DNA of 64,000 bases from a virus (taxonomy: Duplodnaviria > Caudoviricetes), in IMG/VR virus record IMGVR_UViG_3300031994_000058, positions 22,688 to 86,687 of that record; one strand, written 5' to 3'. The notes beneath the pieces are model-generated. The model had not been told where the DNA came from. It searched no databases and saw only the letters and a program-made list of their open reading frames with translations. This document shows, in pieces, positions 11,512 to 62,389 of the stretch. The position numbers and the translations under genes are program-made. Position 1 is the stretch's first letter. Each line of letters opens with the position of its first letter.

Positions 11512-11533
11512 ATTATTTAACCTCCATTTTGAT

Positions 11534-12214
11534 TTAAATAGCAACCGGCTCCGGCAAGTCAATGATCCAAAGACCACTCATCGGAGCTCTTTTAACCGTA
11601 ATCTCAAAGTTCTTGAGATTGTCTTCGTTCCAACCCCACTTCTGTAAGATTGAATTGTTTCGCCTGTCGATGCCTTTCGCATACTCGCCACAAGCATCGT
11701 AATACTCATTGATGGAGCAGCGACCATATTCACAAATATATTCGACAATATAATTCTTAACACTTTCAGCATCGGCATATACCATCGGAATGTTCTGGAA
11801 TCCTGTCAGATAACTTGTCCGTCCATATGTAACGTTCTGTCCGAGTGGCTGATTCTGAGGCTGACGAGTGAGAGCGCTATAGTTTGTACGAGACACTCCA
11901 ACACCAAGCTTGTTCTGTCCGGTGTTAATCTTCGTATCGCCATACAGCGCCATGTCGATAGCGGCCTTTGATGCGTTCGCAACACCATCGATTACCGCAG
12001 GGAGCAACACACCAGTGATGACGAAAGCAGCTACATCCGTGGGATTTCTTCCCTGGAGAAACGTTGACTTGATTTTTCCCCAGAGTCCTGCATTCTTGGG
12101 TTTGGCTGCATCCGAGAGAATAGGACGAGGAATCTCTCGGTGTTTCTCAGCTTCTGCCTGAGCATCCTTGCTTACTTGTGAGTTGGCATACGGGTCGATC
12201 TTATGTTCTGCCAT
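11534..12214 (-). CDS. Conserved-looking phage hypothetical protein
   Basis: EYGRCSINEYYDACG...KWGW...IIDLPEPVAI; AAGGAGG RBS. Confidence 0.7.
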   Translation of the reverse strand: MAEHKIDPYANSQVSKDAQAEAEKHREIPRPILSDAAKPKNAGLWGKIKSTFLQGRNPTDVAAFVITGVLLPAVIDGVANASKAAIDMALYGDTKINTGQNKLGVGVSRTNYSALTRQPQNQPLGQNVTYGRTSYLTGFQNIPMVYADAESVKNYIVEYICEYGRCSINEYYDACGEYAKGIDRRNNSILQKWGWNEDNLKNFEITVKRAPMSGLWIIDLPEPVAI

Positions 12215-12253
12215 TTTGAATACCTCCTTATGGTTGTAAAAAATTTAAAGAAC

Positions 12254-12329
12254 GATGTAAATGACAGGATTCAAACCTGCAATCTATTGCGTTTCAGCAA
12301 TCGTGTTCCCATAACACTTCATTTACATC
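12254..12329 (-). ncRNA. tRNA-like cloverleaf RNA (B) with a 6-nt anticodon loop
   Basis: Acceptor GATGTAAATG/CATTTACATC; D arm GTGT-TATGGGA-ACAC; ATTGC-TGAAAC-GCAAT; variable AGATT; T arm GCAGG-TTTGAAT-CCTGT; no CCA. Confidence 0.7.
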
Positions 12330-12368
12330 ATTCCTACTATAGCGGTTGTAGAATTTGCGAATCACAGC

Positions 12369-13220
12369 TTACCGGTAACTGTGAAATATCGGATCGGCGT
12401 GAAGGTTAATCTTTAAACATGGAATCTCCGTATCCGGTACAAGCGCTGCATCAACAAGATTATCAACGTTAATGAGACCACTCTCGTTAATATCCCAATA
12501 GAACATATCGCCGATGTCTCTGTTTTCAGTAACACCTCTACCATTGCCAGTATCGACAGCAATCTCGTTTAGATCGGCAAGAATCTCGTTCAGACTTACC
12601 TGATCGCCATAATTCAGACGACTGTTGATGCGATTAAATACCGCCTTAACGTCATCAATCTTCGCGACAAATGGTACATTAGTATAAGGTGCTAAGAAGA
12701 TGCTGTACTGAGTATTGATCCCGACATATTCTACGGCTTTCTTATCTGGCGGATTCTTATCGACCTGATCCTGAGCAACCTTCTGGTTGATGAAGCTCAT
12801 CTTCTTTTCACCAACAACTTCCTCGGTCTTTTTCTGGAATTCCTTGAGACTCATATCAGCAATTGTGTAAGCCGCAGACAGAGCCACCTGACGCTTATCC
12901 GAAATATAATCAGACCCGATAATTGCTGCTGCTGAAAGAGCAAAGGAAAGTCCGACACCCCAATACGCAGGGATTACAGCCTTTACGGTTTCGATGGGCG
13001 TGAGTGTAATATCATCAATGTTCGTCACGCTTCCGTCTTCCGATCGATCGGCTGCTTTCTCCGCCTTAGCATTCTTGATACGAAGGTCAGCATCGTCCTT
13101 CTGTTTGATTGCCCAGATAATGGTTCCAAACATTCCGCTGATGCCAAGCGCCGTGAGAATTTTGGGACTATGCTTGACAAGTACTTTCGTCCCACTCTGC
13201 AAGATTTCGTTTACTGCCAT
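12369..13220 (-). CDS. DUF6353-like phage protein
   Basis: KHSPKILTALGISGM...IIGSDYIS.KRQVALSAAY pattern. Confidence 0.7.
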   Translation of the reverse strand: MAVNEILQSGTKVLVKHSPKILTALGISGMFGTIIWAIKQKDDADLRIKNAKAEKAADRSEDGSVTNIDDITLTPIETVKAVIPAYWGVGLSFALSAAAIIGSDYISDKRQVALSAAYTIADMSLKEFQKKTEEVVGEKKMSFINQKVAQDQVDKNPPDKKAVEYVGINTQYSIFLAPYTNVPFVAKIDDVKAVFNRINSRLNYGDQVSLNEILADLNEIAVDTGNGRGVTENRDIGDMFYWDINESGLINVDNLVDAALVPDTEIPCLKINLHADPIFHSYR

Positions 13221-13266
13221 TTTGATTTCCTCCTTGTGGTTGTGAAAAATGAAAAAGATAAAGAAC

Positions 13267-13310
13267 GATGTAAAAGGTGGGATTTGAACCCACTACATTT
13301 CATTTACATC
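13267..13310 (-). ncRNA. tRNA minihelix-like RNA (C): acceptor stem plus T arm
   Basis: GATGTAAA...GTGGG-TTCAAAT-CCCAC-C-TTTTACATC; flanks shared with element B. Confidence 0.6.
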
Positions 13311-13317
13311 ATTCCTA

Positions 13318-14119: not shown

Positions 14120-14132
14120 TTTGATTTCCTCC

Positions 14133-14489: not shown

Positions 14490-14543
14490 ATCTGATTACC
14501 TCCCATTTTGATTTGGACAAAAAAAAAGAAAAGAGGAGAGGCA

Positions 14544-14822: not shown

Positions 14823-14878
14823 AACAATACCTCCAAATAAGTAGTAGACTTTTTACAGTCCCTATTAAGAACGTTGTT

Positions 14879-15250: not shown

Positions 15251-15301
15251 AACATTTTACCTCCCATTTTGATTTGGACGAAAAAAGAAAAAGGAGAGGC
15301 A

Positions 15302-15523: not shown

Positions 15524-15685
15524 ATTAACTCCTCCTCAAATATGTATATAGGGTTTTCACCTCTATAAGGAGAGCTGTTTCGTTTGTGAGGCGTCACTCT
15601 CGTAGAGATGGGCGTGTAGTATCGTGTCTGGAAACAGACCTTTTGCGAAAAAAGAGGATGGCTGTAAAACCACCCTCGCACGAAA

Positions 15686-16147: not shown

Positions 16148-16271
16148 AATGGATTCCTCCTTTAAAGATTTTTGTGGTTTACTTACCATTAAGGCAGGTG
16201 TCCCATTTGCGAGATTTACTGCCATTTTGAAAAAAAAAGGAAAGGACGTTGTGTCCAATCCTTTTTGCGGG

Positions 16272-16991: not shown

Positions 16992-17072
16992 ACTATTTCC
17001 TCCTTTGCCATATCTTCTATAAGGAGGCGTGTCTAGTTTGCGAGAAAAATATAAAAGAAAAAGGAAGAGGCA

Positions 17073-17713: not shown

Positions 17714-17839
17714 AACAATACCTCCTTTAGATATGTATAGGTTTATATTCCTTCTATAATATACCTTGCAAATATTGCGAGGGTGTATTTTACTGCCATT
17801 TTGAAAAAAAGAAGGGCCCTGTTTAAGAGCCCACTTCTT

Positions 17840-18845: not shown

Positions 18846-18939
18846 AAAGCCACCTCCTTATTAAAGTCAATGTTTGAAATGCGAGAAAAAATTTAGGAGC
18901 CATGTATAAAACACGACTCCCATTTTGAAACCTCCTTAA

Positions 18940-19377: not shown

Positions 19378-21882
19378 TTACGCCGTACCAGTCCAGTTGA
19401 TTGTAAAGTTCGTAGCTCCCCATCCATTTGCATATCCTGAAATAGCGTTCTCTTTGCGATTGATGTTAAACGTTATACCATCGCAGCCCGCAAACGCGGA
19501 AGAGTTAATAGTCGTCATCGTATTCGGAAGATTAACAGTTACCAAACTTGTACAATTCAGAAATGCGTTGGCGTTAATAGTTCTTAGCACAGGATTAGAT
19601 TCAGAAGAAGGCGTAAAGGTTGTCATATTACTGCATCCTTCAAAAGCGTTCGCGTTGATCGTTGTTACCTTAGGCGGTAATATAAAATTGACAAATCCGA
19701 CACAACCTCTAAAGCAACCGGTGCCGATAGACGTCCATAATGGTGCCGTTATAGAGGTAAGACTTGCGCAACCGTCAAACATATAAGACGAACCACTCGT
19801 TTGTTTAGAAATAGTTGCCGATTGCAAGGCTGCGCAATTCTCAAACGTACTAGCGCCAATGGACGTCGGCATAGAAAGTGTTATCGATGTAAGACTAGTG
19901 CAACCGCTAAAGCACTTCTCTCCAACAGTATAAGTTTTTGCGTTTTCAGTAAACGTCGTCAAACCGGTGCATCCAGCGAATGCTTGGATGCCTACTGCCG
20001 TTACCGCGGTTGGTAAAGTGAAAGACGTTAAAGAAACACAATCCTTGAACGCCGTTTTAGCGATAGTCTTTATAGTAGATTGAAGTTCGATTGACGTAAG
20101 CGCCGAGCATCCCTCAAAGCAAGACTCGCCAATAGTTGTGTATTTTTCACCAATGACTGTTGTAGATGGATTCTCAGTGTTAATCGTAACTGTTTGAAGA
20201 CCGGTACAATGATAAAATCCTAATTTTGGCATAGTTGTGCAATTTCGAGGAAGCATGATGCTAGTTAAACTGGTACAATTTTGGCACATTCCCTCGCCCA
20301 ACGACGTCACTGTTTTAGCGATTGGTAAATCTTCAAGAGCCGTGCAACCAGAGAAAACATAATCACCTATAGTGGTTAGTTTAACTGTTTGTCCATCTGG
20401 AATAACATATTCGAACTTCTCCATGGCAGAGCATCCCTGAAAAACTGAATCGCCAATCGACGTGACTGTATAAGGAATACGTACCGCATCACCTTGAGAT
20501 ACTACAGCATCTATATCGGGGTAGCTGATGTTTTTTAGTTTAGTGCAGTTCTTAAACGTTTCATTGAGAATAGAGGTTATTAATGATGAATAAGTAACGC
20601 TGGTGTTACTGTAATCGACCATTGATACACTAGTCAAATTAATACATCCGTCAAATACACTAGCCTCCAATCGTTTGGTAGATCCAGTACCGCCAACGAT
20701 TGTAATATGATCCAACGCCGTACACCCATAGAATGCGTGATCGCTTGGATATATTACCTTACCAGTTTCAAACGCAATGAGCGATTCACAATTATAGAAA
20801 CCGGCCTGACCAACGACAGTGGGATTTTCTGTAAGAGTTATATCAGTGAGTTTTGAACACCCGCTAAACATATATGCTGACACATTGCCAACAGGAACCG
20901 CATCCGTGTTAAACTTAGGCATTTTAGCTTCGACCAAATTCTCACATCCCATAAACATTGAGTTGTAGTCAGTTGTTTTGGTACTTGCTAATTGTATATC
21001 GTTATTTGCAGGTTCAAGATTCGTTAAATCGACATACGTCAAAGATGTGCAATTTTTAAAAGACGTTGGATAAATGGATATAACGCCCTCAGGGATGACG
21101 AGTCGAGTAATTGCACAATTCTCAAAAGCGTTATTTCCGATCACATAGATAGACGATGTTATGATATTGCTGACATCGGTAAGGCCTGTACCTTTAAACA
21201 TATTGTCAGAAATGAACCACAAATTTTCCGGCATGTCGACCGTCGTTAATGATTCGCAACCCTCAAACATCGACTCATAGTGCTCCTGTGCATATTCGGC
21301 GGGCCACGTAGAGCTAGCTCCGGAGGTTCTCTCCTGATTTATCTCAGTGACTGTTTTAATGTTTACAGTAGTCGGCAGATCGATCTCAGTAATTGATTTG
21401 CAACCTTTGAAACAGTGTTTTCCGAATGTAATTTTATTGTCCGGAATCTCGATCTCAAGAAGACTTTCACAATTTAAGAAGGCATCATCCTGGATTTCCA
21501 TCGTGCCTTCAGGAATAACTACCGACTCGATAGAAGTAATGCCCTTGAACGCTTCACTGCCGATTACTGTACATTCGGTGGGAATAATCGCACTAATAGT
21601 GTTCGTGCTAAGTCTAAAAGTGGTTGGGTCACTAAGAAATATCGCACCGCTACTGCTTCCGCCTTCTTGTTGAGAAAGCTTGTAAAGAGCGTCGTGAATA
21701 GCCATGCGGATGTCTTTTCCATACGTACTTTCACGAATAGTAGTCAGCTCACCTTTAATTGCCGATCCAGGATACATAAGTTTTACCAGCTTCTCTAAAG
21801 CCGAATCAACGTTATTTAGGACGTCTTCACCACCAGATTTAGACTTTATAGCCTCAAGCTGAGAACTAATATCAACTGCCAT
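19378..21882 (-). CDS. BspA-type (TpLRR/LRR_5) leucine-rich repeat protein, 834 aa
   Basis: Many repeats of the L..I.IP..V..IG..AF.GC..L type; N-terminal YGKDIRMAIHDAL; C-cap GWGA..FTINW. Confidence 0.92.
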   Translation of the reverse strand: MAVDISSQLEAIKSKSGGEDVLNNVDSALEKLVKLMYPGSAIKGELTTIRESTYGKDIRMAIHDALYKLSQQEGGSSSGAIFLSDPTTFRLSTNTISAIIPTECTVIGSEAFKGITSIESVVIPEGTMEIQDDAFLNCESLLEIEIPDNKITFGKHCFKGCKSITEIDLPTTVNIKTVTEINQERTSGASSTWPAEYAQEHYESMFEGCESLTTVDMPENLWFISDNMFKGTGLTDVSNIITSSIYVIGNNAFENCAITRLVIPEGVISIYPTSFKNCTSLTYVDLTNLEPANNDIQLASTKTTDYNSMFMGCENLVEAKMPKFNTDAVPVGNVSAYMFSGCSKLTDITLTENPTVVGQAGFYNCESLIAFETGKVIYPSDHAFYGCTALDHITIVGGTGSTKRLEASVFDGCINLTSVSMVDYSNTSVTYSSLITSILNETFKNCTKLKNISYPDIDAVVSQGDAVRIPYTVTSIGDSVFQGCSAMEKFEYVIPDGQTVKLTTIGDYVFSGCTALEDLPIAKTVTSLGEGMCQNCTSLTSIMLPRNCTTMPKLGFYHCTGLQTVTINTENPSTTVIGEKYTTIGESCFEGCSALTSIELQSTIKTIAKTAFKDCVSLTSFTLPTAVTAVGIQAFAGCTGLTTFTENAKTYTVGEKCFSGCTSLTSITLSMPTSIGASTFENCAALQSATISKQTSGSSYMFDGCASLTSITAPLWTSIGTGCFRGCVGFVNFILPPKVTTINANAFEGCSNMTTFTPSSESNPVLRTINANAFLNCTSLVTVNLPNTMTTINSSAFAGCDGITFNINRKENAISGYANGWGATNFTINWTGTA

Positions 21883-21902
21883 TTTGATTCATCTCCTTCT
21901 TA

Positions 21903-22679: not shown

Positions 22680-24415
22680 TTACCTCCAAGCCATCTAATC
22701 TCGCAATCTTCTGGCAAATATGCTGTATAGGCTTTCGGCGTCCACGGATTTCCATTAGAATCAACTATACTTCCTTCTGTGCGATTTATATTTATTCTTT
22801 TTAAAGCCCTACAACCGGCGAACACTCTCGGATTGCTTGGATCATCAAAAATTTGTTCAACAGCATTACCTATAGTAACTGATTCTAGTGAACTACAACC
22901 ATTAAAAGCCCCACCGCCAATATATGTCGGGCCATTGGGTATACTGATCGTTTTTAAACTTCTGCAAGATTCGAAAGCCGCTGCTCCGATACTAGCTACG
23001 CTGCTAGGAATGGATACCGATTCTAATGCAATACAATGTCCGCATACATAGTTGCTAATATCAGTGAGGTGTGGAGGAAAGGCCAGAGAAGTAAGTGATT
23101 GACAATTATAAAACGCAAACGCCTCTATTGACGTTAGAGACTCCGGAAGAACCAAATTATCTAAAAGCGTACATCCCCAAAATGCATGATCTTTGATGGT
23201 TATTAGATTATCAGACAAGCTGATGGCAGTCATACTTTCACAAGACTCAAACGCTTTTGTTCCGATCGTTTGTACAGAGTTAGGTATGCTTATATAAGGC
23301 AATGATGTACACTCGGCGAACGCTCTCGCTCCTATATCTTTAAATGCTGGTTCATCCTGCAACACCACAGTTGTTAAGGCATAACAATTGTCGAAGCATG
23401 CTTCTGGTATTGAAATCTGATTACCGGGATGAAATACAACGGTTTTTAAATTAGAACACATCATGAACGATCCTATGCCCAAATATGATATACTCGCGAG
23501 CTCTATTCGCTCCAAGGAATAACAATCTCTGAATGTCTCGTTCCCTATATGGGTCACATTTGACAAGTCGATATCTTTAAGCGCCATGCAATATGCAAAA
23601 GCGTTATTGTTTAGATAATATGCATTGTTCAAATCGACAGTAGTTAATCCCTCACATCTATAAAAAGCATTGGACTCTACATCGGTTATTGAATCCGTAA
23701 ATACAACATCATCAAGAAGCCTGTCATATTCGAACATATTATACGTTACTCGTGTCATCGATTCTCCGAATGTAACATTAGTCAGGTATTCGTTCCAGCT
23801 ATATTCGTGTCCCCTAGTTGATGAGTGAATATATCGATTCGGTATTACCACTTCGCTAAGTTTTGTATTATGAAACGCGGATCTCTCTATGAATAATCCG
23901 ATATCAGACTCCGTATACGTAACATATCGAAGTGTACTTCCAGTAAATGCATATTCGCGAATAGCTGTAATTGTACCAGGAACATGAAATGCAAGAATGT
24001 TTTTGCAGGTTTGAAATGTTCTATTAGGAACTTCGGTCACTCCACACTCTTCACCAATCCAAATTCGATACATAATGTTTGGATCATTCTCGTAATACTC
24101 ATCGAGCTTGGCACGGGCTTCGGCGAGCGTCTTACAATAGAAAACATCATCGGTATCCGCATCACCATCCAACATGATTACCGAAATCCAATAATCTTTC
24201 CACACCGGTTCTGTGGGATCATATATACAATATGCAACGTTTTGCTCCTTTACTTCTAAAGCATCATACTCCTCTTGCGTTACAAGTTTTTTCGTGGTTG
24301 CTCGAAGTCCATGGTTGTAAAGAATCCAAAGAGCATCTGAAATAGGTCCTCGAATATCTTTACCATACGTACCTTTGCGAATTTCCCGTCCTTGTCCCTC
24401 TATATATACTGCCAT
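22676..24415 (-). CDS. BspA-type LRR protein, 579 aa
   Basis: YGKDIRGPISDAL, TQEEYDALEVKEQNVAYCI, then about 15 LRR units. Confidence 0.92.
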   Translation of the reverse strand: MAVYIEGQGREIRKGTYGKDIRGPISDALWILYNHGLRATTKKLVTQEEYDALEVKEQNVAYCIYDPTEPVWKDYWISVIMLDGDADTDDVFYCKTLAEARAKLDEYYENDPNIMYRIWIGEECGVTEVPNRTFQTCKNILAFHVPGTITAIREYAFTGSTLRYVTYTESDIGLFIERSAFHNTKLSEVVIPNRYIHSSTRGHEYSWNEYLTNVTFGESMTRVTYNMFEYDRLLDDVVFTDSITDVESNAFYRCEGLTTVDLNNAYYLNNNAFAYCMALKDIDLSNVTHIGNETFRDCYSLERIELASISYLGIGSFMMCSNLKTVVFHPGNQISIPEACFDNCYALTTVVLQDEPAFKDIGARAFAECTSLPYISIPNSVQTIGTKAFESCESMTAISLSDNLITIKDHAFWGCTLLDNLVLPESLTSIEAFAFYNCQSLTSLAFPPHLTDISNYVCGHCIALESVSIPSSVASIGAAAFESCRSLKTISIPNGPTYIGGGAFNGCSSLESVTIGNAVEQIFDDPSNPRVFAGCRALKRININRTEGSIVDSNGNPWTPKAYTAYLPEDCEIRWLGGN

Positions 24416-24434
24416 TTTGAATTTTCACCTCCGA

Positions 24435-25275: not shown

Positions 25276-25539
25276 TTAAACAGTATGCTTAACTCTATCT
25301 GCTTCTTCGGCTCTTTTGCCGTCGTTCCATCGACTCATATCACCTACAAGATAGCCGGTGATGCGACGAATGCGCTCGAACGGAATATCCTTGAGCGTCC
25401 ATTCAAGATCAACGTACTCGCCGTCAACCTTGATAGTAACGCTCTCAAGTTCTCTCTTGCCGACCTTCTCCTTGACATAGTCGACGTAAATCTTCTTTTC
25501 ATCAGGGTGAATAGCTTCACCAATAACTTTTACTTCCAT
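25276..25539 (-). CDS. Stand-alone class III ribonucleotide reductase (NrdD) C-terminal glycyl-radical-motif protein, 87 aa
   Basis: PFERIRRITGYLVG...WNDGKRAEEADRVKH; far too short to be a full NrdD. Confidence 0.8.
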   Translation of the reverse strand: MEVKVIGEAIHPDEKKIYVDYVKEKVGKRELESVTIKVDGEYVDLEWTLKDIPFERIRRITGYLVGDMSRWNDGKRAEEADRVKHTV

Positions 25540-25568
25540 TTTGAAGTCCTCCTTAGAATTTAGGTTGC

Positions 25569-37725: not shown

Positions 37726-38280
37726 TTACGTGCGTGGTTTTCGTCTAGCCTTATTGACCATATGGTTCTGTCTAAGAACATCCTGCTTAGACATTTTCTT
37801 AGACGGTTGGCTTTTAATGCTAGCAACCTTTAAAAGCGTCATGAGTCTATTAAAATGCCAATACTGAGTCTCAAAAGGAATTTGTGCAGCCGCCATCCAA
37901 TAATACACTAACTCACTTGTAACGATTTCGTTATTGCTAGGGGTTTTGCCCTGTTTTAATAATTTATCATTAAACCAAGTTGCTGTCATGGAATCGTTCA
38001 TGTATTCGGCAATCTCGTTTTGTTGGGCCTTGGTTAAAGCTTGTAAAACGAGTGGATTAACATTGTCATCCAGAATCATACATCGAATGTAATCAAGCAT
38101 TTGTTCTTGGGTTTTCTTGTGTCGTTTATCATCTGCGAGAAACGCAATCTTCCATTTTGATTCCCACTTAGCTATTGCATATAGACTATGCTCTAAATGG
38201 AGAGTCTGCGGTTCTATAGTCACAAACTCTCCATTAGCTTCATCGTAAAATTCTACAGCGTTAACCTGCAGTTCGAGCAT
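37726..38280 (-). CDS. Tail assembly chaperone-like protein 2
   Basis: LEHSLYAIAKWESKW...WHFNRLMTLL; located before TMP. Confidence 0.65.
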   Translation of the reverse strand: MLELQVNAVEFYDEANGEFVTIEPQTLHLEHSLYAIAKWESKWKIAFLADDKRHKKTQEQMLDYIRCMILDDNVNPLVLQALTKAQQNEIAEYMNDSMTATWFNDKLLKQGKTPSNNEIVTSELVYYWMAAAQIPFETQYWHFNRLMTLLKVASIKSQPSKKMSKQDVLRQNHMVNKARRKPRT

Positions 38281-41337: not shown

Positions 41338-41421
41338 GACTGCGCGACCAGTCCCATTTTGATTAAATTTCTGACCAGATTTGGGTGTTCTGTTTAAAAT
41401 TGTTACGATTGATTTATCCGT

Positions 41422-44928: not shown

Positions 44929-45062
44929 TTTAAAGCCTCCTTCAAAATCTAAAATTTGTTTTAAACAAGTCCTTAAAAGGACTGATAGGTCTAATAAACA
45001 TTTAAGAAGACATACCCCGCCTCCCATTTTGAAAGACGGGGTCATTAGTCTTCATGACTTCA

Positions 45063-48441: not shown

Positions 48442-50310
48442 TTAGCCCTGAGCCGGAACATACTCAAGCACGAGTGCGGACTTCGGCTTAACAAGGCAAC
48501 CAGAGCAACGAGTCTCCATCAGGTACTTCATCTGGTTGTAATCGATGTCGAAGTCATCAAAGGTATTGATCTCGCCACCCTTATCAGCGCCGACAACGTA
48601 GTCTGCCGGGTTTACAATGATACCAGCCAGAGTGCGAGTTACAGCAGAAGCGCCCTCACCAGTGGTTCTGGTAATGCCTGCCATGGGCTCAACAGTAACG
48701 ATCTTAGAAACGAGCAGTGCGGTTGCAAGCTCATCCTTAGTTCTGTAGAGTCTTCGGCCGATACCATCCTCAACGAGCAGCAGATCTGCCAGAGTATCCT
48801 CAGTAGTATAGAATGTCGGATTACCAGAACCCTTATAGTTCTTGCGTGCCTTGATTGCAGCCTTAACGAGAGCCTTGGCCTTAGCCTCCTCATCGTCATC
48901 GGCAGCAACCTCAACGTCGACCTTTACGGAGAACAGGTCGTCATCAGTGTAGATCGGACGAATGCAATCCTCGTTGATCTTGTCGTCTGCCTGGGTTACC
49001 GGATCACGACCATCACCCAGCAGAAATGCACGAGCGAGTTCCTCATTCAGCATGACTCTCATCTCACGGCGAACGTATGCTACTACATCGAAATCAGTTA
49101 CATCAATGATGTCATCACGATCGAACTTCTGCTTCTTGTAAACGGTGGTCGGAACGGTGATTCTCTTCAGGAGCTTGAATACTTCTTCGAGCTTCTTCTT
49201 ACCCTTCACGTAACCTCTTGCACGAGCCTCCTCGGCAGTAATGTCTGCAAAGATAGTCTTAATACGAGCGAACGGGCTACGCTTAACCGAATTCAGGAAC
49301 GCAGATACCCACTCCATATCTCTGGAGATAAGCTCGGGCTCCTTAGTCCAATTCTTAGCATCCGGGAACAGCCAGTCGATGTCCTTGATACCATAGGCGT
49401 CTGCATGAGCAAGAATAGTATCCTTCAGGCTCTGCTGCTTCTTGGAAGCCTCTGCAAAAATTGCGGAGGTCTCTGCTCTCAGTTCCTCGCCGTGCTTTAC
49501 AGCATTCTCATCAGAGGACTGAATGCCGGTGTAGGTTGCGGAATTGTCAAATACGTTGTGCTTCATTTCTTTTTCATCCTCCTTGGATTCGTTCGTTGCT
49601 TCGTTGTTAGATTTGTTATTACGCTTCATAGCCTCGCCGACCATAAAGTATACAACCATTTTCTGCTTCTCGGACATTGCGTCAAAGACATCCTTGATGG
49701 TTTCCTCGTCATTGTCAGCATGCTCGAGTTCGTCATCTTCGGTGTTCTCGGTCTCAGTCTCGGTTTCGGTTTCCTCAGGCTCTTCATCCTCATCTTCATT
49801 AGAAAGGAAGCAGCTACCATCGGCAGCGTGACACAGGAAATACGGAGTCTCGAAGTCGATGACCTCGTCATTGTATACGAATCCCTGCTCGCCATATGCT
49901 TCGCTACCATCAGAATGTGTGATGATGTTGTCGATATACGCGCCAGGATTTGCGCCATGCATTACAAGGCTTACCTCACGAATTACACCATGAACAACAT
50001 CAGGGCCATTCTGGGTAAGCTGATTAGCATAGATAGAAAGCGCATCAAGATCACCATGCTTAACCGCTTCTAGAGCAGCCTTGCCATTCTCGGAGTCATT
50101 GAGTGCGCAGTAAGCATATACGCCCTCTGCACGATTCTCAAGAAGTGCATGGCCGATTACGGATGCGGGAGAAGAATGATCATGCTGCCACATAAGCGGA
50201 ACAACATCGCAATCATTGTCCTTGAACGCATCGCGCTTAATTACGCGACCATCTGTGCACTTGAGATTGTTTCTAGTGGCCCAGCCACTAAAATCAAATC
50301 TTTCTGCCAT
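48442..50310 (-). CDS. Prohead protease fused to major capsid protein (HK97 fold)
   Basis: Start MAERFD; PLMWQHDH...IREVSLVMHGANPGA protease; acidic linker; FDDFDIDYNQMKYLMETRCSG capsid end. Confidence 0.92.
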   Translation of the reverse strand: MAERFDFSGWATRNNLKCTDGRVIKRDAFKDNDCDVVPLMWQHDHSSPASVIGHALLENRAEGVYAYCALNDSENGKAALEAVKHGDLDALSIYANQLTQNGPDVVHGVIREVSLVMHGANPGAYIDNIITHSDGSEAYGEQGFVYNDEVIDFETPYFLCHAADGSCFLSNEDEDEEPEETETETETENTEDDELEHADNDEETIKDVFDAMSEKQKMVVYFMVGEAMKRNNKSNNEATNESKEDEKEMKHNVFDNSATYTGIQSSDENAVKHGEELRAETSAIFAEASKKQQSLKDTILAHADAYGIKDIDWLFPDAKNWTKEPELISRDMEWVSAFLNSVKRSPFARIKTIFADITAEEARARGYVKGKKKLEEVFKLLKRITVPTTVYKKQKFDRDDIIDVTDFDVVAYVRREMRVMLNEELARAFLLGDGRDPVTQADDKINEDCIRPIYTDDDLFSVKVDVEVAADDDEEAKAKALVKAAIKARKNYKGSGNPTFYTTEDTLADLLLVEDGIGRRLYRTKDELATALLVSKIVTVEPMAGITRTTGEGASAVTRTLAGIIVNPADYVVGADKGGEINTFDDFDIDYNQMKYLMETRCSGCLVKPKSALVLEYVPAQG

Positions 50311-51577
50311 TTTGAATTTCCTCCTTGTTAGATAGTATATCGGAATAAGAATCATCAACAACTGGCGAATTATTTATTGGATTGCCATTATCGTCTGTCG
50401 CTTGGTTTAGATTCTTGTTTCTAAGTTCGTTTGCGGCCGGATCATCAACCGGTTTGTAGCCAACGATTGCTCTAACCTCATTAGAACTGAGAATCTCATT
50501 TCTAGTGAATTTATCAGCAATGTCAGCAACCTTCTCGACAGGAACGAGCTTAAACGGATCTCTAAAGAACCAGATTGATTCTCTTTGAGTAATAGCAGTT
50601 CTTGATAAAAACTTTCGTTTAAATTCGTCTGCGATTGCCGCGAGAATGGGCTCGACGGTTCGGCTATAGTAGTTTAGTAATTCCTGCTCTGATGCACTGC
50701 CATCAAGAATGGCTTGTGTGATGCCAAGCTGTGCATAAAGATCAGTCCGTAGATCCTGAACCTGTGTAGAAAGCTGATTTTCTACAGGTCTATTAAGCTG
50801 AATTACCTGCTCTGTACCATCCGTATAAGCAATGCCATATTCAGAACTCGTAAGCTGGGTCTCAATGTCTTTTCGACGTTGTTCCGCTTGTTGACGCCGA
50901 ACTTCGCCTTTAACGATATAGGGAAGCTGAATGATAAGATCGAGCTTGCGTCCGCTGTTTCTTTCATCCAGCATATCGATTAGATTGAGCTTTCGCATGA
51001 GTCTTTTTGCCGTTGAGTTAGGTTCATTCATGATTGAATAGAACGGATTCTCAATAATAGCAATGGTTCGCTTAGGACAAATGATCTCCTTATGCAGTCC
51101 ATCTCGTTCATCATACAAACGAACACGAACTCTGTCAGGATACCATTCCATAATCTTACCGACTCTCATTGACAAGATGTCATAAGATTCGGTAACATCT
51201 GGGTTTTTATCCGTTTCGGTTGGTACAACAGCTACTACTCCTTCATCAAACATCGATAGAACAAGGTCAAGAACGAATGCTCGACCAGTCTGATCGATAT
51301 TTGCTTCAACGGTCATACATCGATTGAGCTTGTCTTCAATAGTTGTGACGTATTTACCATTAGCGTCGAGCTTTGCATGGAGTAGATTAATCTGGGCGAC
51401 ATCATTCGCAATTCGATTGTAAATTGCGTTGACGATTGAACGCTCATTTCCTCTACTCAGCACGGCTTTATCGGGTCTTGATCCATATGACGCATAGAAA
51501 GGATACTGTTTTTCTTTCGTCGGATCTCGCCCGATAAAGGCGTTCCAACCATTTTGAAATCTTGTAAATAATGACAT
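50294..51577 (-). CDS. Portal protein
   Basis: IYNRIANDVA, LDLIIQLPY, GIAYTDGTE, EILSSNEVRAIVG; between TerL and capsid. Confidence 0.9.
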   Translation of the reverse strand: MSLFTRFQNGWNAFIGRDPTKEKQYPFYASYGSRPDKAVLSRGNERSIVNAIYNRIANDVAQINLLHAKLDANGKYVTTIEDKLNRCMTVEANIDQTGRAFVLDLVLSMFDEGVVAVVPTETDKNPDVTESYDILSMRVGKIMEWYPDRVRVRLYDERDGLHKEIICPKRTIAIIENPFYSIMNEPNSTAKRLMRKLNLIDMLDERNSGRKLDLIIQLPYIVKGEVRRQQAEQRRKDIETQLTSSEYGIAYTDGTEQVIQLNRPVENQLSTQVQDLRTDLYAQLGITQAILDGSASEQELLNYYSRTVEPILAAIADEFKRKFLSRTAITQRESIWFFRDPFKLVPVEKVADIADKFTRNEILSSNEVRAIVGYKPVDDPAANELRNKNLNQATDDNGNPINNSPVVDDSYSDILSNKEEIQNGRKI

Positions 51578-53005: not shown

Positions 53006-54751
53006 TTAATAGAACAAATCCTTGTTGTTTTTCCAAGCGACATAAGCATCCATCATGGCGGACACATTATCGATTTTTTGGTCGCTTCGTTTCTTCAGAA
53101 GTTTGCGATTTCCATTTGTGTCTTCAAGTGTGATACAGTTACCCATACAAAACTTCATAATCTCTTGGTCGAATCTAAGCATTCGATCTTCCGATAGAAT
53201 CTTAAGTTCTCCAAGGGGCACTGTTTCTGTTCGTGCACCCTGTGCCACTTTCTCGACACCAAACGGTGTATTTTCCGTAGACCAACGTGTAATGAATTCT
53301 TTTGCGTTGTATGGGTCATAACCCACAGACACAACATCATAAGAGTTTGCCTGTATATACGCATCGAGTTCATCATATACTTGATTCATGTCTAAAACGG
53401 AGCCGTCCATAATAATAAGACTGCCTTCATTTATGAACATCTCATACGTCGATCGCATCGCAAGCGGAAGATTGCACAACGTTCTCTCTGTAATGTAACT
53501 CCTCGCTTTTACGCCGAAAGAACCATCGCGTAATGGAAAGAGAAATGTGAATGCACAGAAGTCATCACCTTGAGACAGGTCACATCCCATCGAGCAAGCC
53601 ATGGACCAGTAGTCTCGATGCTCGTGCGGTATGGTTTCGTCATAGGTAAAGTAATACGTATAGCCTTCCATAGGAATGCCAAAACGCTTTGCCAGAATAT
53701 CATTTCTGGTTGCAGGAGCTTTCTCAGCACGTTCTTTATCGAGCTGATATGTCTCGTAACTAACTGTCTTACCAAGATTCGGATTTGCTTTAATCCACAT
53801 ATTAGGATCCGCAACTTCCTTAATGTCATCGAGTCGATACCACCAAATAGAAATGTGAGGGTTGATGTAATCGCCCTTCAGAATGTCCATCAATTCCATT
53901 TTGATTGTATCACCACTGCCGTTTCTGACTGTACCTTCGGATGAAATCGCGACAATGAGATAATCGTCAAGTTTTGACGCGCCCTGCTCGATTGCACCAA
54001 CAACATCCTCTCGTACGTCTCCAGAAAGCCACTCGTCGATCGTTGCGATTTTACAACGGAGACCCTGTAGCTTATCTACAGACATCGGTCGAATTTCCAA
54101 TAGACTTGATGTCAAGAAATTCTCAATACCCTTTTTTGTCGCCGATAATTTACACCGATTCATCTTAGAGCCTGTGGTGTTTTGAATCGAACCCTCTGTT
54201 AAAAATTTGAATAGTGGTCCTCGTGCTCTTGCGATGGATGTACGTATCGGCGACATAACCTCTTCCGCCTGATGCATTGTTGGGGCGGTTGTTACCTGAT
54301 GTGTGGTGAACGGATCTATGTTCAGAAAATAATTCTGAATGCAAGATGCATACATAGACTTCGCCGCGCCTCGAGCTACGATAAGATACTGTTTGTTGGT
54401 GAGCCGCTTTTTAATACGCTTCATTTCGTAATGACCGCCGTACCCATCCTTATCAGGGACGAATACTGAGCGATCAACGAAGTAATACCAACCAAATATC
54501 TGTTCTGCCCATAGCTTAAAACTATCGAGCAGGTGTAGCTCGGTACCATCAGTAAGGGTAAGCTCATTTTCACAATAGGCAATAAACCCATTGATAGCTT
54601 CGTCATCATAGTAGATGTTTGGGTTCGCAATGAGATCGTCAATGCGATTCATCTCCATTGAGATCTCTTGATTTACTGGTATTTTTCTTTGCAAAACTGC
54701 TTCTCGAAATTGCCCGTAATAGATTGGAACCGCAGTATTTGATAAACTCAT
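53006..54751 (-). CDS. terL: Terminase large subunit
   Basis: Walker A-like LIVARGAAKS, Walker B ATIDEW, nuclease GCDLSQGDDF, KIDNVSAMMDA. Confidence 0.95.
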   Translation of the reverse strand: MSLSNTAVPIYYGQFREAVLQRKIPVNQEISMEMNRIDDLIANPNIYYDDEAINGFIAYCENELTLTDGTELHLLDSFKLWAEQIFGWYYFVDRSVFVPDKDGYGGHYEMKRIKKRLTNKQYLIVARGAAKSMYASCIQNYFLNIDPFTTHQVTTAPTMHQAEEVMSPIRTSIARARGPLFKFLTEGSIQNTTGSKMNRCKLSATKKGIENFLTSSLLEIRPMSVDKLQGLRCKIATIDEWLSGDVREDVVGAIEQGASKLDDYLIVAISSEGTVRNGSGDTIKMELMDILKGDYINPHISIWWYRLDDIKEVADPNMWIKANPNLGKTVSYETYQLDKERAEKAPATRNDILAKRFGIPMEGYTYYFTYDETIPHEHRDYWSMACSMGCDLSQGDDFCAFTFLFPLRDGSFGVKARSYITERTLCNLPLAMRSTYEMFINEGSLIIMDGSVLDMNQVYDELDAYIQANSYDVVSVGYDPYNAKEFITRWSTENTPFGVEKVAQGARTETVPLGELKILSEDRMLRFDQEIMKFCMGNCITLEDTNGNRKLLKKRSDQKIDNVSAMMDAYVAWKNNKDLFY

Positions 54752-55864: not shown

Positions 55865-56267
55865 TCATCTTCACCTCCTCTTTGGAGTCCGTGCTACCAT
55901 TTTGAATTTCTTCGTTCATACTGTTTAAAGCCTTATCCACAAATTTTGGAATAGGAACTCCTAATTTTTTAAGATTCTCACAGATACTTACGATTTCCAT
56001 AAGAATGATGTATAAAGAGAATGCTGACAGAATATAGAATGGAAAGTTCATTCCCGCGGTAAAAAGCTGGCCAATGAACAAAATCATTATTTCTCCAAAT
56101 TTTCTGCCGAGGCCCTCTCTCATTTTATAAGACTTAAGATGCCCACTTGCCCATGCATGGATCACGCCTGTTAGTACATCAATACCCATTAAAGTTACAG
56201 GAATAAGCATGATCCAACCACCATCATGAAAACTTACATCTACGAAAATGTTAGTGATCTCGTTCAT
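55839..56267 (-). CDS. Holin (toxin secretion/phage lysis family 4)
   Basis: IDVLTGVIHAW...KSYKMREGLGRK...MEIVSICENLKKLGVPIP. Confidence 0.9.
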   Translation of the reverse strand: MNEITNIFVDVSFHDGGWIMLIPVTLMGIDVLTGVIHAWASGHLKSYKMREGLGRKFGEIMILFIGQLFTAGMNFPFYILSAFSLYIILMEIVSICENLKKLGVPIPKFVDKALNSMNEEIQNGSTDSKEEVKMNGDRESKA

Positions 56268-56338: not shown

Positions 56339-56896
56339 TTATTCGCCTTTCATGGAATCGATAACTCGAATGAACTGATTAAGTCTATCACGCTCGTAGT
56401 TAGACTGAGCGCTGTCCATCATCTGTTCGATCTTATCGATTACTCTATCCTCAATACTATGGCCACTCATACCGCTATCATAAGCGAACGAACCATGCAT
56501 ACGACGGCCGGACGTTCTCATGTCATCATGGTAATCATCATGACCGTATGAATATCTTCGACCATCTCGACTGACGTATCTGCCAGTTGCTGCGTCTCGA
56601 CCACGGGCATAAGAATGCATCCTTCCAGAATATCCGTCATACATCATGGGTTCATCCCATCCATAAGAATACTCATGATTAGGATAATACATCCGAGGCA
56701 TACCTTCAGAAGTTTCATACTTATACTCTGCTTTTCCGCCGCGCATTACATCGTCGATCTTCTCAATAAGGCATACCGCATTCTTAGCATTCTCAATCTC
56801 CACAGGAGAAAGAGAAGGCTTGGAAGCAACAAGCTGCTCAATATCTTTTTCGACATGCTCACGGAGATTCATGAGTGTCTTGTTCTCCATTTCCAT
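56339..56896 (-). CDS. Accessory-module protein with Tyr/Gly/Arg low-complexity region
   Basis: YSGR/YSYG repeats, ARGRDAATGRYVSRD. Confidence 0.7.
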   Translation of the reverse strand: MEMENKTLMNLREHVEKDIEQLVASKPSLSPVEIENAKNAVCLIEKIDDVMRGGKAEYKYETSEGMPRMYYPNHEYSYGWDEPMMYDGYSGRMHSYARGRDAATGRYVSRDGRRYSYGHDDYHDDMRTSGRRMHGSFAYDSGMSGHSIEDRVIDKIEQMMDSAQSNYERDRLNQFIRVIDSMKGE

Positions 56897-56913
56897 TTTG
56901 AATTCCTCCTGTG

Positions 56914-60006: not shown

Positions 60007-60228
60007 TTATCCTTTCCCCATAAGGTGATTCGCCATTTGAGCAACGGCGTTGAACTGCTCCTGAGAGATTTCGCCATTTTGAATTTTCTGCTGAATAATC
60101 TGCTGTGGGCTCATCTGAGCAGAAGCATTAAACTGCTGCTGAAAATTATTAAACTGGTTTACAAAATTATTGAAACCACCAAGCTGACTGAATAATGGAT
60201 TCTGCGGATTAAAGTTAAAGCCGTTCAT
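60007..60228 (-). CDS. Small Gln/Asn-rich protein
   Basis: NNFVNQFNNFQQQF...PQQIIQQKIQNGEISQEQFN. Confidence 0.75.
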   Translation of the reverse strand: MNGFNFNPQNPLFSQLGGFNNFVNQFNNFQQQFNASAQMSPQQIIQQKIQNGEISQEQFNAVAQMANHLMGKG

Positions 60229-60234
60229 ATACTA

Positions 60235-60729
60235 TCACCCCTTAAGTTCGTTGTAAAGCGCTTCAAACTTTGCTTTCAGATCATCAAACTCCGCCTTCGG
60301 AACTGTAGATTCTTGCGATGTCTGATACTTCTCAGTTTGCGACGGTTGCATCATAGGATTTGGAGTCGTCTCTGTCAGACTCCATGTGCGTGGACTTAAA
60401 TCAATTCCATATACGTCTTTTGCTTTCAAGCAAAGTTCATGTTCAGAGAAGTTAAACAGGGCGATCGTTTGTCCAGCCATTGGTGTATAATAGTTGTAAT
60501 CCGACTTATTATTCACCATGTAACAAACTGTGATGCCTCTTTGCTCTGTGGCAAAAGGAACCGGTTGAAGTTGCGTTGTTGGTTGTGGATTAATCCAATT
60601 ACTATAGTTTGGTTGCACCTGTTGTATTTGCTGCTGTTGAGTTGTTTGCGTAGGCATTGGTTGTGTCCGTGTTGTACTTTGCATAGGCTGAGTTCCAGCA
60701 TTCGTATAATTTGCGAGCACTATTACCAC
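60235..60729 (-). CDS. Gln-rich accessory protein
   Basis: Q/P/T-rich N-terminus, then YTPMAGQTIALF...LKAKDVYG. Confidence 0.7.
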   Translation of the reverse strand: MVIVLANYTNAGTQPMQSTTRTQPMPTQTTQQQQIQQVQPNYSNWINPQPTTQLQPVPFATEQRGITVCYMVNNKSDYNYYTPMAGQTIALFNFSEHELCLKAKDVYGIDLSPRTWSLTETTPNPMMQPSQTEKYQTSQESTVPKAEFDDLKAKFEALYNELKG

Positions 60730-61100
60730 TCCTTTCTGTAATAGTAAATCGGCGATTTATCTCCAGAATCAAACGTGTCATAATAATCACCATTCACAAC
60801 GGCTATTACATGACCGGAGGTTTTAAGAAGATATGAACCAATCGGATGATCATCACAAAAATCTCTAACTGTATAGCAATCAGGACATGTATCCGGTATC
60901 AAATATCTTCTATAACCTCGCATCGATAGGAATTTACCCCACATCTTATCAGAAGAAGGCATGTCATAATTTTCCCGACAAATATCTGTTACGCTGTCAA
61001 ATGCTTCTAACCATGTAAGACCTTCGAGTCTACAAATGGCCCTTATTGTACAGTCTGTGACATGTTTTCCTTTGGGGTTCGGATTATAGTAGATAAACAT
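60723..61100 (-). CDS. Possible papain-like (Cys-His-Asp) small peptidase
   Basis: DCTIRA...GHVIAV..GDYYDTFDSG. Confidence 0.5.
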   Translation of the reverse strand: MFIYYNPNPKGKHVTDCTIRAICRLEGLTWLEAFDSVTDICRENYDMPSSDKMWGKFLSMRGYRRYLIPDTCPDCYTVRDFCDDHPIGSYLLKTSGHVIAVVNGDYYDTFDSGDKSPIYYYRKEW

Positions 61101-61135
61101 TTTGAATTAACCATAAAAATTTGATCTATAAGACT

Positions 61136-61705
61136 TTACTTAAGCGGAATAAAACTCGGTGTCGCGTAAAGAATCTCTTTCGGCGTTCTATTCTTATTCA
61201 TTCTTGCTATCTCATCGATTGCATGCTGGTTTGAAACGCGGGCACTTCGGACGGCTTTCTTGTATGGCTTATAGTACTTCTCGGCTTTTTTGACGGTTTT
61301 CTGCATAGAGAGTGAGTCTAGGAAATCTTTCGCGGCTTTAAAAAGTTTACCGTTTCTAAAGTTTACCAAAGCAGACATCTTAGTTGCTTTAACGTCGTCC
61401 ATTACGTCTTTTGTAGCCACTTCATATGTCCAAACTGTATTATTTAAAGCCCTCTGTTGCTCTTCGAGAAGATACTGTGCGCGTGACAATTCCTCCTTAC
61501 GAACATTTCCAGGATCAACCGAGTCTCCCTTTTCGACTCCTGCACCGCCATTCGTGACATACTTCTCTCTGGCTTTTGGGCGATTGTCCTGCCACTTCTC
61601 TTTGTGCTTCTTGTAGTATTCGGCGTTATACTCAGATTCACGTTTTTTTTGTTCTGGAGACTTCCCCCAAGAATGACTGAGTTCTGCCAGAAAATCTTGT
61701 TTCAT
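61136..61705 (-). CDS. HSWGK-leader protein
   Basis: LSHSWGKSPEQKKRESEYNAEYY. Confidence 0.8.
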   Translation of the reverse strand: MKQDFLAELSHSWGKSPEQKKRESEYNAEYYKKHKEKWQDNRPKAREKYVTNGGAGVEKGDSVDPGNVRKEELSRAQYLLEEQQRALNNTVWTYEVATKDVMDDVKATKMSALVNFRNGKLFKAAKDFLDSLSMQKTVKKAEKYYKPYKKAVRSARVSNQHAIDEIARMNKNRTPKEILYATPSFIPLK

Positions 61706-61716
61706 GTGTAAGCTCC

Positions 61717-62076
61717 TTATAATTTAGTGATTCCGGGATCTACTTCGACATTAAGTCGCCACTCAAGTTCCTTGATTGCTTCTTTCATCTTCTCATTTGC
61801 AATGGAGCTTGCTGGCGGATCGAAGATAAGCTTTACTTGCATGTAAATATATGATCGAACTTGCGGGAGCCTATTTGCAGGATAGTCGTCGCCAAGAAAG
61901 TCGTGCCACGTTTGTGTCTCGTCTGTTAGAATGAATTCAGGAGTTCCAACGCCCATCTGAACAAGATTCGCAAGATATGTGTTGGCATGAATCATGATGT
62001 CTTGGTCGAAATAATTGTAATCTGTGGCGGCTCCGCCAAGAAGTTTTCGCAAACTTGCTAAGATGGATTCGTCCAT
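61717..62076 (-). CDS. Head-tail connector (gp6-like)
   Basis: SILASLRKLLG...FDQDIMIHAN...LVQMGVG...VKLIFDPPASS...ELEWRL. Confidence 0.7.
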   Translation of the reverse strand: MDESILASLRKLLGGAATDYNYFDQDIMIHANTYLANLVQMGVGTPEFILTDETQTWHDFLGDDYPANRLPQVRSYIYMQVKLIFDPPASSIANEKMKEAIKELEWRLNVEVDPGITKL

Positions 62077-62089
62077 TTACTTGCCTCCT

Positions 62090-62389
62090 TTATTTTTTAC
62101 CATAAAGGTATCTATTACCAACGTCTCTTAAATGATGACCGCTTCTGTCATGAAGTCTATTTCTATTAGTTAGGCTCTCCACTACACCTTCATAGATCCA
62201 ACCCTCACCGATTATCGCTTTGGCCTTATAGAATTTGCGATCTGTCCAGTCATATGTGACATTAGATTCGTCGATCTCAATGACTTCGCCATTTTGAATT
62301 TCACCAACGACATCTTCTGAAATTTGAGTAATCCATGGAGCTCGTCTCAGAGATGCTTTCTTACAATTGGCGATTTTTACTTTAGTCAT
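62090..62389 (-). CDS. SH3-like domain protein
   Basis: IANCKKASLRRAP...VVGEI..GE...EGWI. Confidence 0.55.
   Translation of the reverse strand: MTKVKIANCKKASLRRAPWITQISEDVVGEIQNGEVIEIDESNVTYDWTDRKFYKAKAIIGEGWIYEGVVESLTNRNRLHDRSGHHLRDVGNRYLYGKK

Follow-up and report, generated by a model that had tools for sequence, protein, structure and literature searches.

A rumen/gut siphophage (IMG/VR record IMGVR_UViG_3300031994_000058) carries a nine-letter word, TCAAAATGG in the direction of its genes, that is repeated in a single orientation and confined to one module, i.e., the structural and lysis genes. The stretch analysed here (hereafter the window) comprises bases 22,688-86,687 of the 86,687-bp record, 64 kb in all, and the coordinates of copies are window positions. 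We consider that the late-class promoter of this phage lineage has TCAAAATGG as its core, located at or next to the transcription start and likely read by the lineage's own putative single-chain RNA polymerase, a reading to which we assign a probability of about 50%.

A polar word confined to the late genes

The window holds 25 exact copies of CCATTTTGA on its plus strand, corresponding to TCAAAATGG in gene direction, and none on the other strand; dinucleotide-shuffled versions contain 1.1 copies on average and five at most. The original prediction, made from the letters of the window, had described a strand-polarised and repeated 9-mer with a chance expectation of about one copy per strand, and this description agrees with our counts. 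All 24 positions it listed are correct and none is in reverse orientation, but the list was incomplete, as it lacked the copy in the large terminase gene (53896-53904). Every long open reading frame (ORF) of the window lies on the minus strand and all genes of the record are co-oriented. The first 34,210 bases of the record, i.e., its non-structural part, are devoid of copies, and all 25 are located in the ca. 50-kb structural/lysis part, which encodes the large terminase, portal, capsid-protease fusion, connector, a tape measure of 2392 amino acids (aa) and tail proteins, as well as a holin, an endolysin, a reverse transcriptase and a series of small cassettes bounded by terminators. In the part free of the motif, an RNA ligase, a thymidylate synthase and a MazG-like protein are encoded besides small genes without assigned function. 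The gaps between copies are larger and more even than random ones (minimum 687 nucleotides (nt) versus a random median of 63, P < 0.001; coefficient of variation 0.61 versus 0.94), and mid-gene copies are present in very long genes.

The position of the copies relative to genes is varied. Seven of the 25 supply the start codon to a real gene whose Shine-Dalgarno sequence lies 5-8 nt upstream, one opens an 18-codon mini-ORF, about seven are non-coding (four after terminator-like hairpins and three leading directly into the Shine-Dalgarno sequence of the next gene) and ten are intragenic. These classes differ slightly from the earlier division into seven start-codon, eight intergenic and nine internal copies. 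The IQNG-type peptides that the copies were said to produce do appear in most internal frames (xxT CAA AAT GGx), with the exception of two copies encoding SKW and one encoding IKME. The motif ATG need not be a start codon, given that the portal copy, which provides the start codon in several relatives, is found 20 nt inside the gene here.

Selection on the word was examined by permuting synonymous codons within each gene (500 runs), which keeps both proteins and codon usage. By our own gene calls the late genes contain 12 internal copies against 2.05 ± 1.31 in the shuffled sets (maximum 7), and the non-structural genes contain none against 0.05 expected. The start context TCAAA-ATG-G is found in seven of 65 late genes and in none of 84 non-structural genes. 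Enrichment therefore persists beyond codon usage and start context, and preference for ribosome-binding sites is excluded as a full explanation, as had been claimed at the outset. The internal copies are also conserved at synonymous positions: their third-codon positions are identical in 22 of 22 cases in the related genome G001 (flanks 59%) and in 15 of 15 in G002 (flanks 61%), and a Fisher test pooled over seven relatives gives p = 3.5e-8. At the terminase site (D-T-I-K-M-E-L) the word is kept in ca. 51 of 66 homologues, including those of Gordonia and Rhodococcus phages, with the codons around it varying freely at their third positions, and where homologues are without the word, one synonymous site or both usually differ (most commonly as ATT AAG). 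Purifying selection acts on the DNA or RNA word and not on the protein. In G004 the terminase word is lost, exact TCAAAATGG is nearly absent and only the weaker TCAAAATGN is enriched. A peak of starts 14 nt downstream of copies was traced to the conserved terminase site (I-K-M-E-L-M) and does not reflect a separate group of genes.

Genes behind terminator-like hairpins in the cassette array (window 11.5-19 kb) have a bipartite motif, TCAAAATGG or the two together ahead of them. The bipartite motif, TC(G/A)CA-N16-T(T/A)AT(A/G)G with fixed spacing, occurs 21 times, always on the gene strand (window 5265-19340 and record 1929-22687); as TCGCA-N16-TWATRG it is confined to the non-structural and cassette regions and absent from the structural region, both here and in G002. 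For two of the four cassette-block copies that follow hairpins, TCAAAATGG is the sole recognisable signal before the next ribosome-binding site, and the intergenic copies at 14503 and 15264 are clear duplicates of each other. The mini-ORF opened by the copy at 18920 has a strong Shine-Dalgarno sequence upstream and crosses a 12-bp terminator-like hairpin with a T-run (18894-18928), an arrangement that could be attenuator-like or due to chance. We also considered tiny upstream or overlapping ORFs starting at the motif ATG, but discarded them, as their lengths at internal copies are random (3-31 codons).

Relatives from two phyla and their RNA polymerase

A search with the capsid-protease fusion recovered 250 relatives in IMG/VR, mainly from rumen and gut samples, and nearly all of 80 loci fetched around this gene contain several copies each, always in gene direction. 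In 87 related sequences (2.05 Mb) exact copies number 446 forward and one reverse. Single-base variants drop near background at all nine positions, the mildest being the change of the last G to A (99 forward/6 reverse) and of G7 to A (52/3). The logo of 295 distinct copies from relatives is compact (A-W-TCAAAATGG-n-A-G-T), and no -35-like partner, longer conserved flanks or conserved hairpin could be seen in it. In 27% of these copies the motif ATG starts a gene that has a Shine-Dalgarno sequence upstream, ca. 10% are situated 17-25 nt ahead of a start (with the GG opening the Shine-Dalgarno sequence in the examples read) and 138 (47%) lie outside -60 to +80 nt of every predicted start. Several relatives have tandem pairs exactly 12 nt apart (G003 at 22409-22429; loci L027, L029, L035, L077 and L081); otherwise, copies close to each other are avoided.

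Forward/reverse counts in individual genomes are equally one-sided, both in G001 (25/0), G002 (17/0), G003 (21/0), G005 (13/0), G006 (7/0), G007 (11/0) and MT835495 (11/0) and in Faecalibacterium phage FP_oengus (17/1), Lactococcus phage P162 (6/0), Streptomyces phage DrGrey (4/0), Gordonia phage Gravy (5/0), Arthrobacter phage Qui (14/0), Rhodococcus phage ReqiPoco6 (9/0) and Microbacterium phage Count (7/0). All ten cultured or GenBank members checked are enriched in the word, which is identical in phages of seven host genera (Lactococcus, Faecalibacterium, Streptomyces, Gordonia, Arthrobacter, Rhodococcus and Microbacterium) and hence conserved across phages of two bacterial phyla, Actinobacteria and Firmicutes. 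In DrGrey, Gravy and Count the capsid-protease gene has a copy at its annotated start codon. The copies are confined to one contiguous structural-gene part in all full genomes, and the same ca. 40-50-kb motif domain is seen in G002, G003, G005, FP_oengus, P162 and the actinophages. The single reverse copy of FP_oengus is placed at the endolysin start, where no minus-strand gene is present; the only minus-strand late gene of this phage has no copy, which leaves the comparison of orientations uninformative. Megablast of a phage collection with 11 kb of the window gave no match. No description of TCAAAATGG was found in the literature consulted, full-text matches to the 9-mer being primers or unrelated, and the papers on the Rhodococcus, Microbacterium and Arthrobacter relatives make no mention of it.

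The non-structural region has a second polar word, T(T/G)ATATTT, with 67 forward occurrences against about five for comparable reverse words, in the window mainly at 1-11500. It is often found just before a Shine-Dalgarno sequence or between this and the ATG, and no -35 partner was seen. Its core, NATATTY, is polar in DrGrey (94 forward/0 reverse), Gravy (104/0), ReqiPoco6 (150/2) and Count (175/9), in Gravy and ReqiPoco6 mainly in the region without TCAAAATGG, and has A, A and T in common with the late word at alternate positions.

FP_oengus encodes a protein annotated as 'putative RNA polymerase', whose homologues (40-57% identity) are found in G002-G007, MT835495, P162 and many loci; every full-length relative checked has the gene (G002-G007, FP_oengus, MT835495 and P162), and IMG/VR holds more than 450 homologues. 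This ca. 905-aa protein matches phrog_4291 from end to end (E = 0) and Pfam RdRP at 19.2 bits, i.e., under the cut-off, and has a C-terminal helix-turn-helix (HTH) domain and further HTH-like segments near its N-terminus. A GADFDGD loop (DxDGD metal-binding type) is invariant in seven homologues of 45-50% identity. Its AF2 (AlphaFold2) model is poor (pLDDT 59.8), and Foldseek with this model returned nothing at E <= 0.001; its 50 best weak matches are all QDE-1, bacterial beta' or the largest subunits of Pol II/Pol IV. Comparison with PDB chains, by single sequence and by profile, matched HTH fragments only. Koert et al. considered this protein a YonO/RdRP-like polymerase candidate (HHpred 95.7%) and the signature of a supercluster made up of actinophages, Lactococcus 1706-like phages and FP_oengus, a lineage that also has an HNH endonuclease and a helicase/polymerase in common (10.1101/842583). 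The capsid-protease fusion, terminase and polymerase of our relatives match this lineage. Protein family and lineage are thus the same as in that study, but the 9-mer and its confinement to a module are not reported there, the word 'promoter' being absent from its text and no DNA word being found under 'motif' (10.1101/842583).

In the relatives the domain of TCAAAATGG begins just downstream of the polymerase gene. Thirty-one loci picked by the polymerase alone contain three copies in 246 kb upstream of the gene, none within it and 91 in 289 kb downstream, where the nearest copy mostly follows at a distance of 1-4 kb. Many related contigs stop 0.3-0.9 kb past this gene and Microbacterium phage Count has defined cohesive ends (PMC7302621), which suggests that the linear genome probably has the polymerase gene as the final one on its right side and that the late genes start from the left end.

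Late promoter or another polar signal

The late module needs promoters and no other candidate is found there, which supports TCAAAATGG as late promoter. Furthermore, a word that can occupy the promoter slot of cassettes, is restricted to one module with a domain starting just downstream of the polymerase gene, is kept within genes, can move by 20 nt around a gene start (portal) and is identical in phages of two phyla fits a class-specific promoter read by a phage-encoded enzyme. We postulate that its reader would be the putative two-barrel phrog_4291 polymerase with HTH domains fused at both ends, acting alone or with a late factor, and that the many copies would keep late transcription high throughout the ca. 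50-kb virion/lysis module. Copies would be placed where the compact genome permits, e.g., in the spacer between Shine-Dalgarno sequence and ATG, in the space after terminators or in tolerant codons such as I-Q-N-G. Going by the phiKZ promoter (T-A-T-G, whose G is +1), our guess is that transcription starts at the first G of the GG, in which case the messages of several genes would open with their Shine-Dalgarno sequence GGGAGG. More tentatively, and with rather less confidence than in the promoter itself, we suggest a self-contained late system without host sigma, in which the DNA-binding domains fused to the polymerase would locate TCAAAATGG and transcription would begin where the word ends (3'). 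The host would not read such a signal, and the word may hence have stayed identical as the lineage moved between Actinobacteria and Firmicutes.

Known phage polymerases offer partial parallels. The late promoters of the non-virion polymerases of phiKZ (5'-TATG-3', G = +1; PMC4666361) and AR9 (AACA-N6-T-A/G, last base = +1; PMC5312081) lie at the start site of late genes and are read by a phage two-barrel polymerase without sigma (PMC4666361, PMC5312081). Similar to these, the word described here is short, strand-specific, without -35 element and located in late genes, and it ends in A-A-T-G-G, resembling T-A-T-G. Those polymerases, however, are multi-subunit enzymes of 200-280-kb myophages, whereas the candidate here is a ca. 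905-aa single chain with HTH domains from 55-110-kb siphophages; compared with phiKZ, the word has nine fixed bases instead of four and a start position that we infer. The gene for YonO, the single-chain two-barrel polymerase of SPbeta, likewise directly precedes the virion and lysis genes that YonO transcribes, and the promoter sequence of YonO is undefined (PMC5467207). Unlike the situation here, a single start site ahead of yonK serves the whole operon in SPbeta (PMC5467207), and the lineage polymerase forms a separate family, phrog_4291, with extra HTH domains. The SPbeta stretch with yonO and virion genes contains TCAAAATGG at chance level, and the SPbeta polymerase is without these HTH domains.

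Several observations weigh against a late promoter read by this polymerase, and we infer both the function and the reader. With +1 at the GG, the 27% of copies on start codons, including the conserved capsid copy, would yield RNA that lacks the AUG of the gene concerned; transcription may in fact start some bases further upstream, with nearly leaderless messages as a result, or these copies serve downstream genes only, the spacer between Shine-Dalgarno sequence and ATG perhaps being the cheapest site for a signal directed downstream. The polymerase-bearing loci L195, L206 and L227 have almost no exact copy in 5-10 kb downstream, and in the few-copy loci (these three and G004) we saw decay or the weaker TCAAAATGN and no clear replacement word that would co-vary with the polymerase. 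Co-occurrence alone does not single out the polymerase, so another lineage-conserved protein, e.g., the HNH endonuclease (10.1101/842583), could be the reader. Moreover, as all genes are co-oriented, transcription polarity is inseparable from the polarity of replication or packaging. Finally, tblastn found no polymerase gene in this record. The record is rated 100% complete, yet compared with G002 it is without ca. 12 kb carrying the helicase/polymerase and RNA polymerase genes; in gene direction it begins where G002 continues after the polymerase gene and ends just before the helicase/polymerase gene. This synteny indicates that ca. 12 kb are most probably missing at the contig ends, in which case the phage itself may encode the polymerase.

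The original prediction had left the choice between a polar protein-binding signal and an RNA-level element; a class-specific late promoter was not among the roles it named, and the polymerase gene that relatives carry at the border of the motif domain could not be seen from the window. A selected, polar and sequence-specific signal is what we find, and among the alternatives to a late promoter read by the phage polymerase the RNA-level element is the weightiest, followed by a polar DNA site unrelated to transcription, a host-polymerase promoter with a phage factor and a roadblock. As an RNA-level element, a live but weaker rival that we deem unlikely, the word would act in late mRNA as site for a phage RNA-binding protein or ribonuclease that controls translation, processing or stability, for which T4 RegA and RegB are models. 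It is always on the transcribed sense strand, ca. 40% of copies are on a start codon or directly ahead of a Shine-Dalgarno sequence, and the non-structural T(T/G)ATATTT takes equivalent positions within 5' leaders that follow the bipartite promoter-like motif. However, almost half of the copies are far from starts and yet synonymously conserved, where cleavage or repressor binding would be without obvious use; some are flanked by a terminator and the promoter-like motif that comes next, a stretch from which one would expect little RNA; and the ORFs that the motif ATG opens at internal copies have the random lengths given above. By inspection, we saw no complementarity of TCAAAATGG to the 16S 3' end or the initiator tRNA loop. 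The start-associated sequences (SAS) of Cluster K mycobacteriophages, and similar ones in Microbacterium Cluster EF, are conserved asymmetric words at the ribosome-binding sites of some genes (PMC7302621), but they are found only just upstream of starts and within one cluster, in contrast to a word with about half of its copies far from starts and shared across phyla. A strand-specific DNA site outside transcription, e.g., for T5/tf-like nicks (perhaps made by the HNH endonuclease), lagging-strand priming or guidance of packaging, is in our opinion improbable. Strict polarity, even spacing, the lack of close pairs and the two copies in the 7.2-kb tape-measure gene do look density-driven, and the HNH endonuclease and helicase/polymerase are lineage-wide (10.1101/842583). 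Nicking, priming and packaging nevertheless act chromosome-wide, at odds with a word confined to the late module and another polar word in the other module, and copies after terminators and ahead of ribosome-binding sites indicate gene expression. The packaging, ejection, replication and Chi/KOPS roles named initially fit poorly for the same kind of reason, as such signals should not halt at the border between structural and non-structural genes, and a Chi-like signal read by the host would be expected to differ between the phages of Actinobacteria and those of Firmicutes; Chi and KOPS are host-specific and cover the whole replicon, unlike a word absent from the 34-kb non-structural part and shared by phages of seven host genera.

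A late promoter could also be read by the host RNA polymerase with the help of a phage sigma-like or T4 gp55-like factor, which we hold to be rather doubtful. CAAAAT would then be a -10-like hexamer (A-11 and T-7 kept), the GG would open the discriminator, transcription would start ca. 7 nt downstream and the phage polymerase would serve other genes. CAAAAT agrees with TATAAT at four of six positions, both critical ones included, the conserved n-A-G-T after the GG would occupy the discriminator, and a sigma-70 scan pairs CAAAAT with TTCACA/TTTACA at 16-nt spacing in two copies. T4 late promoters are 8-bp elements without -35 element, numerous and also intragenic. The word resembles them (T4: TATAAATA, which the host polymerase reads together with gp55, gp33 and the gp45 clamp) in its ca. 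8-9 bp, the missing -35 element, dozens of copies, presence in late genes and frequent position in the preceding gene, but its sequence is different from the TATAAATA that T4 has at -10, and the T4 promoters lie 10-100 nt ahead of start codons and not on them. The two copies paired with TTCACA/TTTACA are paralogous duplicates and no general -35 signal exists; no sigma-like or gp55/gp33-like protein is found among the ca. 50 proteins scanned, a set that leaves out many small ones. Specificity at nine of nine positions and identity in two phyla favour a phage-encoded reader, and a start 7 nt downstream would remove adjacent Shine-Dalgarno sequences. Much less likely still are regulator sites that block or gate elongation in late genes. 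The stoperators of Cluster A mycobacteriophages are asymmetric, number dozens, are oriented with transcription and often lie over starts and stops. With these and with the T5/tf nick sites the word shares polarity, asymmetry, multiple copies and a position partly over gene junctions, and the relative FP_oengus encodes an integrase. Stoperators and T5/tf sites are genome-wide, however, and bound by an immunity repressor or a nickase, whereas TCAAAATGG is restricted to the late module; no repressor or integrase is present among the scanned proteins of the record, half of the copies are deep in genes and the word is identical across phyla, although immunity specificities usually diverge. The described actinophage members (Cluster EL relatives) are reported to be lytic (PMC7302621). 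To a mere by-product of codon usage, start-codon context and duplicated intergenic DNA we give hardly any credence: AAA-ATG-GC is a common start context and two copies are duplicates, but the codon shuffle, the invariant synonymous sites, the unequal start contexts of late and non-structural genes and the 446:1 strand ratio refute it.

Features of the late region and meaning of the word

The individual copies are listed in Table 1, together with the genes for five late-region proteins that have a DUF7211 leader (roughly F-L-x-H-H/Y-G-x-x-G-x-x-W-G) on otherwise unrelated bodies, one of them a GNAT acetyltransferase.

Table 1 Copies of TCAAAATGG and DUF7211-leader genes in the window (window positions; strand is that on which TCAAAATGG is read; G001 and G002 are related genomes)
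Position	Strand	Feature	Gene, ORF or structure	Remarks
11524..11532	-	final copy along transcription	next small gene	GG enters its Shine-Dalgarno; borders motif-free non-structural region
12211..12219	-	copy on start codon	226-aa gene (11534-12214)	
13217..13225	-	copy on start codon	DUF6353 gene (12369-13220)	
14503..14511	-	copy past terminator-like hairpin (14553-14537)	gene 14133-14489	GG enters its Shine-Dalgarno; no bipartite promoter between
15264..15272	-	copy past terminator-like hairpin (15310-15296)	gene 14879-15250	GG enters its Shine-Dalgarno; no bipartite promoter between
16222..16230	-	copy past hairpin and T-run		18 nt before TCGCA-N16-TAATGG motif
17796..17804	-	copy just past terminator-like hairpin (17832-17814)		24 nt before TCGCA-N16-TTATAG promoter-like motif
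18920..18928	-	copy after Shine-Dalgarno	18-codon mini-ORF	opens the ORF; overlaps foot of terminator-like hairpin (18922-18894)
21879..21887	-	copy on start codon	834-aa gene (19378-21882)	
24412..24420	-	copy on start codon	579-aa gene (22676-24415)	
25536..25544	-	copy on start codon	87-aa gene (25276-25539)	
27773..27781	-	copy within gene	1135-aa tail protein gene (25714-29121)	kept in G002
32915..32923	-	copy within gene	tape-measure gene (30100-37278)	ca. codon 1452
34286..34294	-	copy within gene	tape-measure gene (30100-37278)	ca. codon 995
38152..38160	-	copy within gene	184-aa gene (37726-38280)	
39623..39631	-	copy within gene	endolysin gene (38759-39658)	codons 10-12; kept in G002
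41354..41362	-	copy in gap	from tail-protein gene (41447-42883) to reverse-transcriptase gene (39986-41059)	
45024..45032	-	non-coding copy or possible start	before ORF 44401-45045	after T-rich stretch; TCAAAATGA in G001
50307..50315	-	copy ATG is start codon	major capsid-protease fusion gene (48442-50310)	same place in many relatives
51549..51557	-	copy within gene	portal gene (50294-51577)	codons 7-10; on portal start codon in several relatives
53896..53904	-	copy within gene	large terminase gene (53006-54751)	in-frame I-K-M-E
55897..55905	-	copy in 3' end of gene	holin gene (55839-56267)	29 nt ahead of start of DUF7211-leader gene (54776-55864)
56893..56901	-	copy ATG is start codon	185-aa gene (56339-56896)	Shine-Dalgarno upstream
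60074..60082	-	copy within ORF	73-aa ORF (60007-60228)	IQNG; kept in G001 and G002
62289..62297	-	copy within ORF	99-aa ORF (62090-62389)	codons 31-34, IQNG; kept in G001, flanks diverged
51593-52351		DUF7211-leader gene		
54776-55864		DUF7211-leader gene		
58410-59282		DUF7211-leader gene		
59344-60003		DUF7211-leader gene		
62833-63441		DUF7211-leader gene		

The N-terminus of the relatives' RNA polymerase has a similar leader (HYG...SGRYPWGSG). The DUF7211 leader could be a head-targeting tag, which would imply that the polymerase is packaged and injected. The reverse transcriptase (39986-41059, 357 aa; phrog_1423, Pfam RVT_1) adjoins the paralogous tail proteins 41447-42883 and 42900-44399 (phrog_5302), and this arrangement looks like a diversity-generating retroelement targeting a tail protein. 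A 697-aa non-structural protein (phrog_1735) was considered as a polymerase candidate and dropped, as it could not be recognised as a polymerase.

Single-chain two-barrel RNA polymerases are minimal relatives of cellular RNA polymerases, and further work on the promoter of YonO and on any extra factors has been called for (PMC5467207). Class-specific promoters of phage polymerases are already known; what is new is that the single-chain, YonO-like class now has a defined candidate promoter, and that this candidate is conserved across phyla. If the self-contained late system suggested above is true, this would be the first defined promoter for YonO-like polymerases, a class regarded as similar to the ancestral form of the cellular enzymes. 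The candidate is sharply defined (9 bp, dozens per genome), and given that cultured members infect Lactococcus, Faecalibacterium and five actinobacterial genera, it is testable with existing phage-host pairs. The word also serves as a metagenomic marker of the late module and of this group of phages. Polymerase and promoter, if confirmed, could be used as a compact orthogonal expression pair for Gram-positive bacteria, and a promoter that is not read by the host would help to explain how one lineage works in hosts of two phyla.

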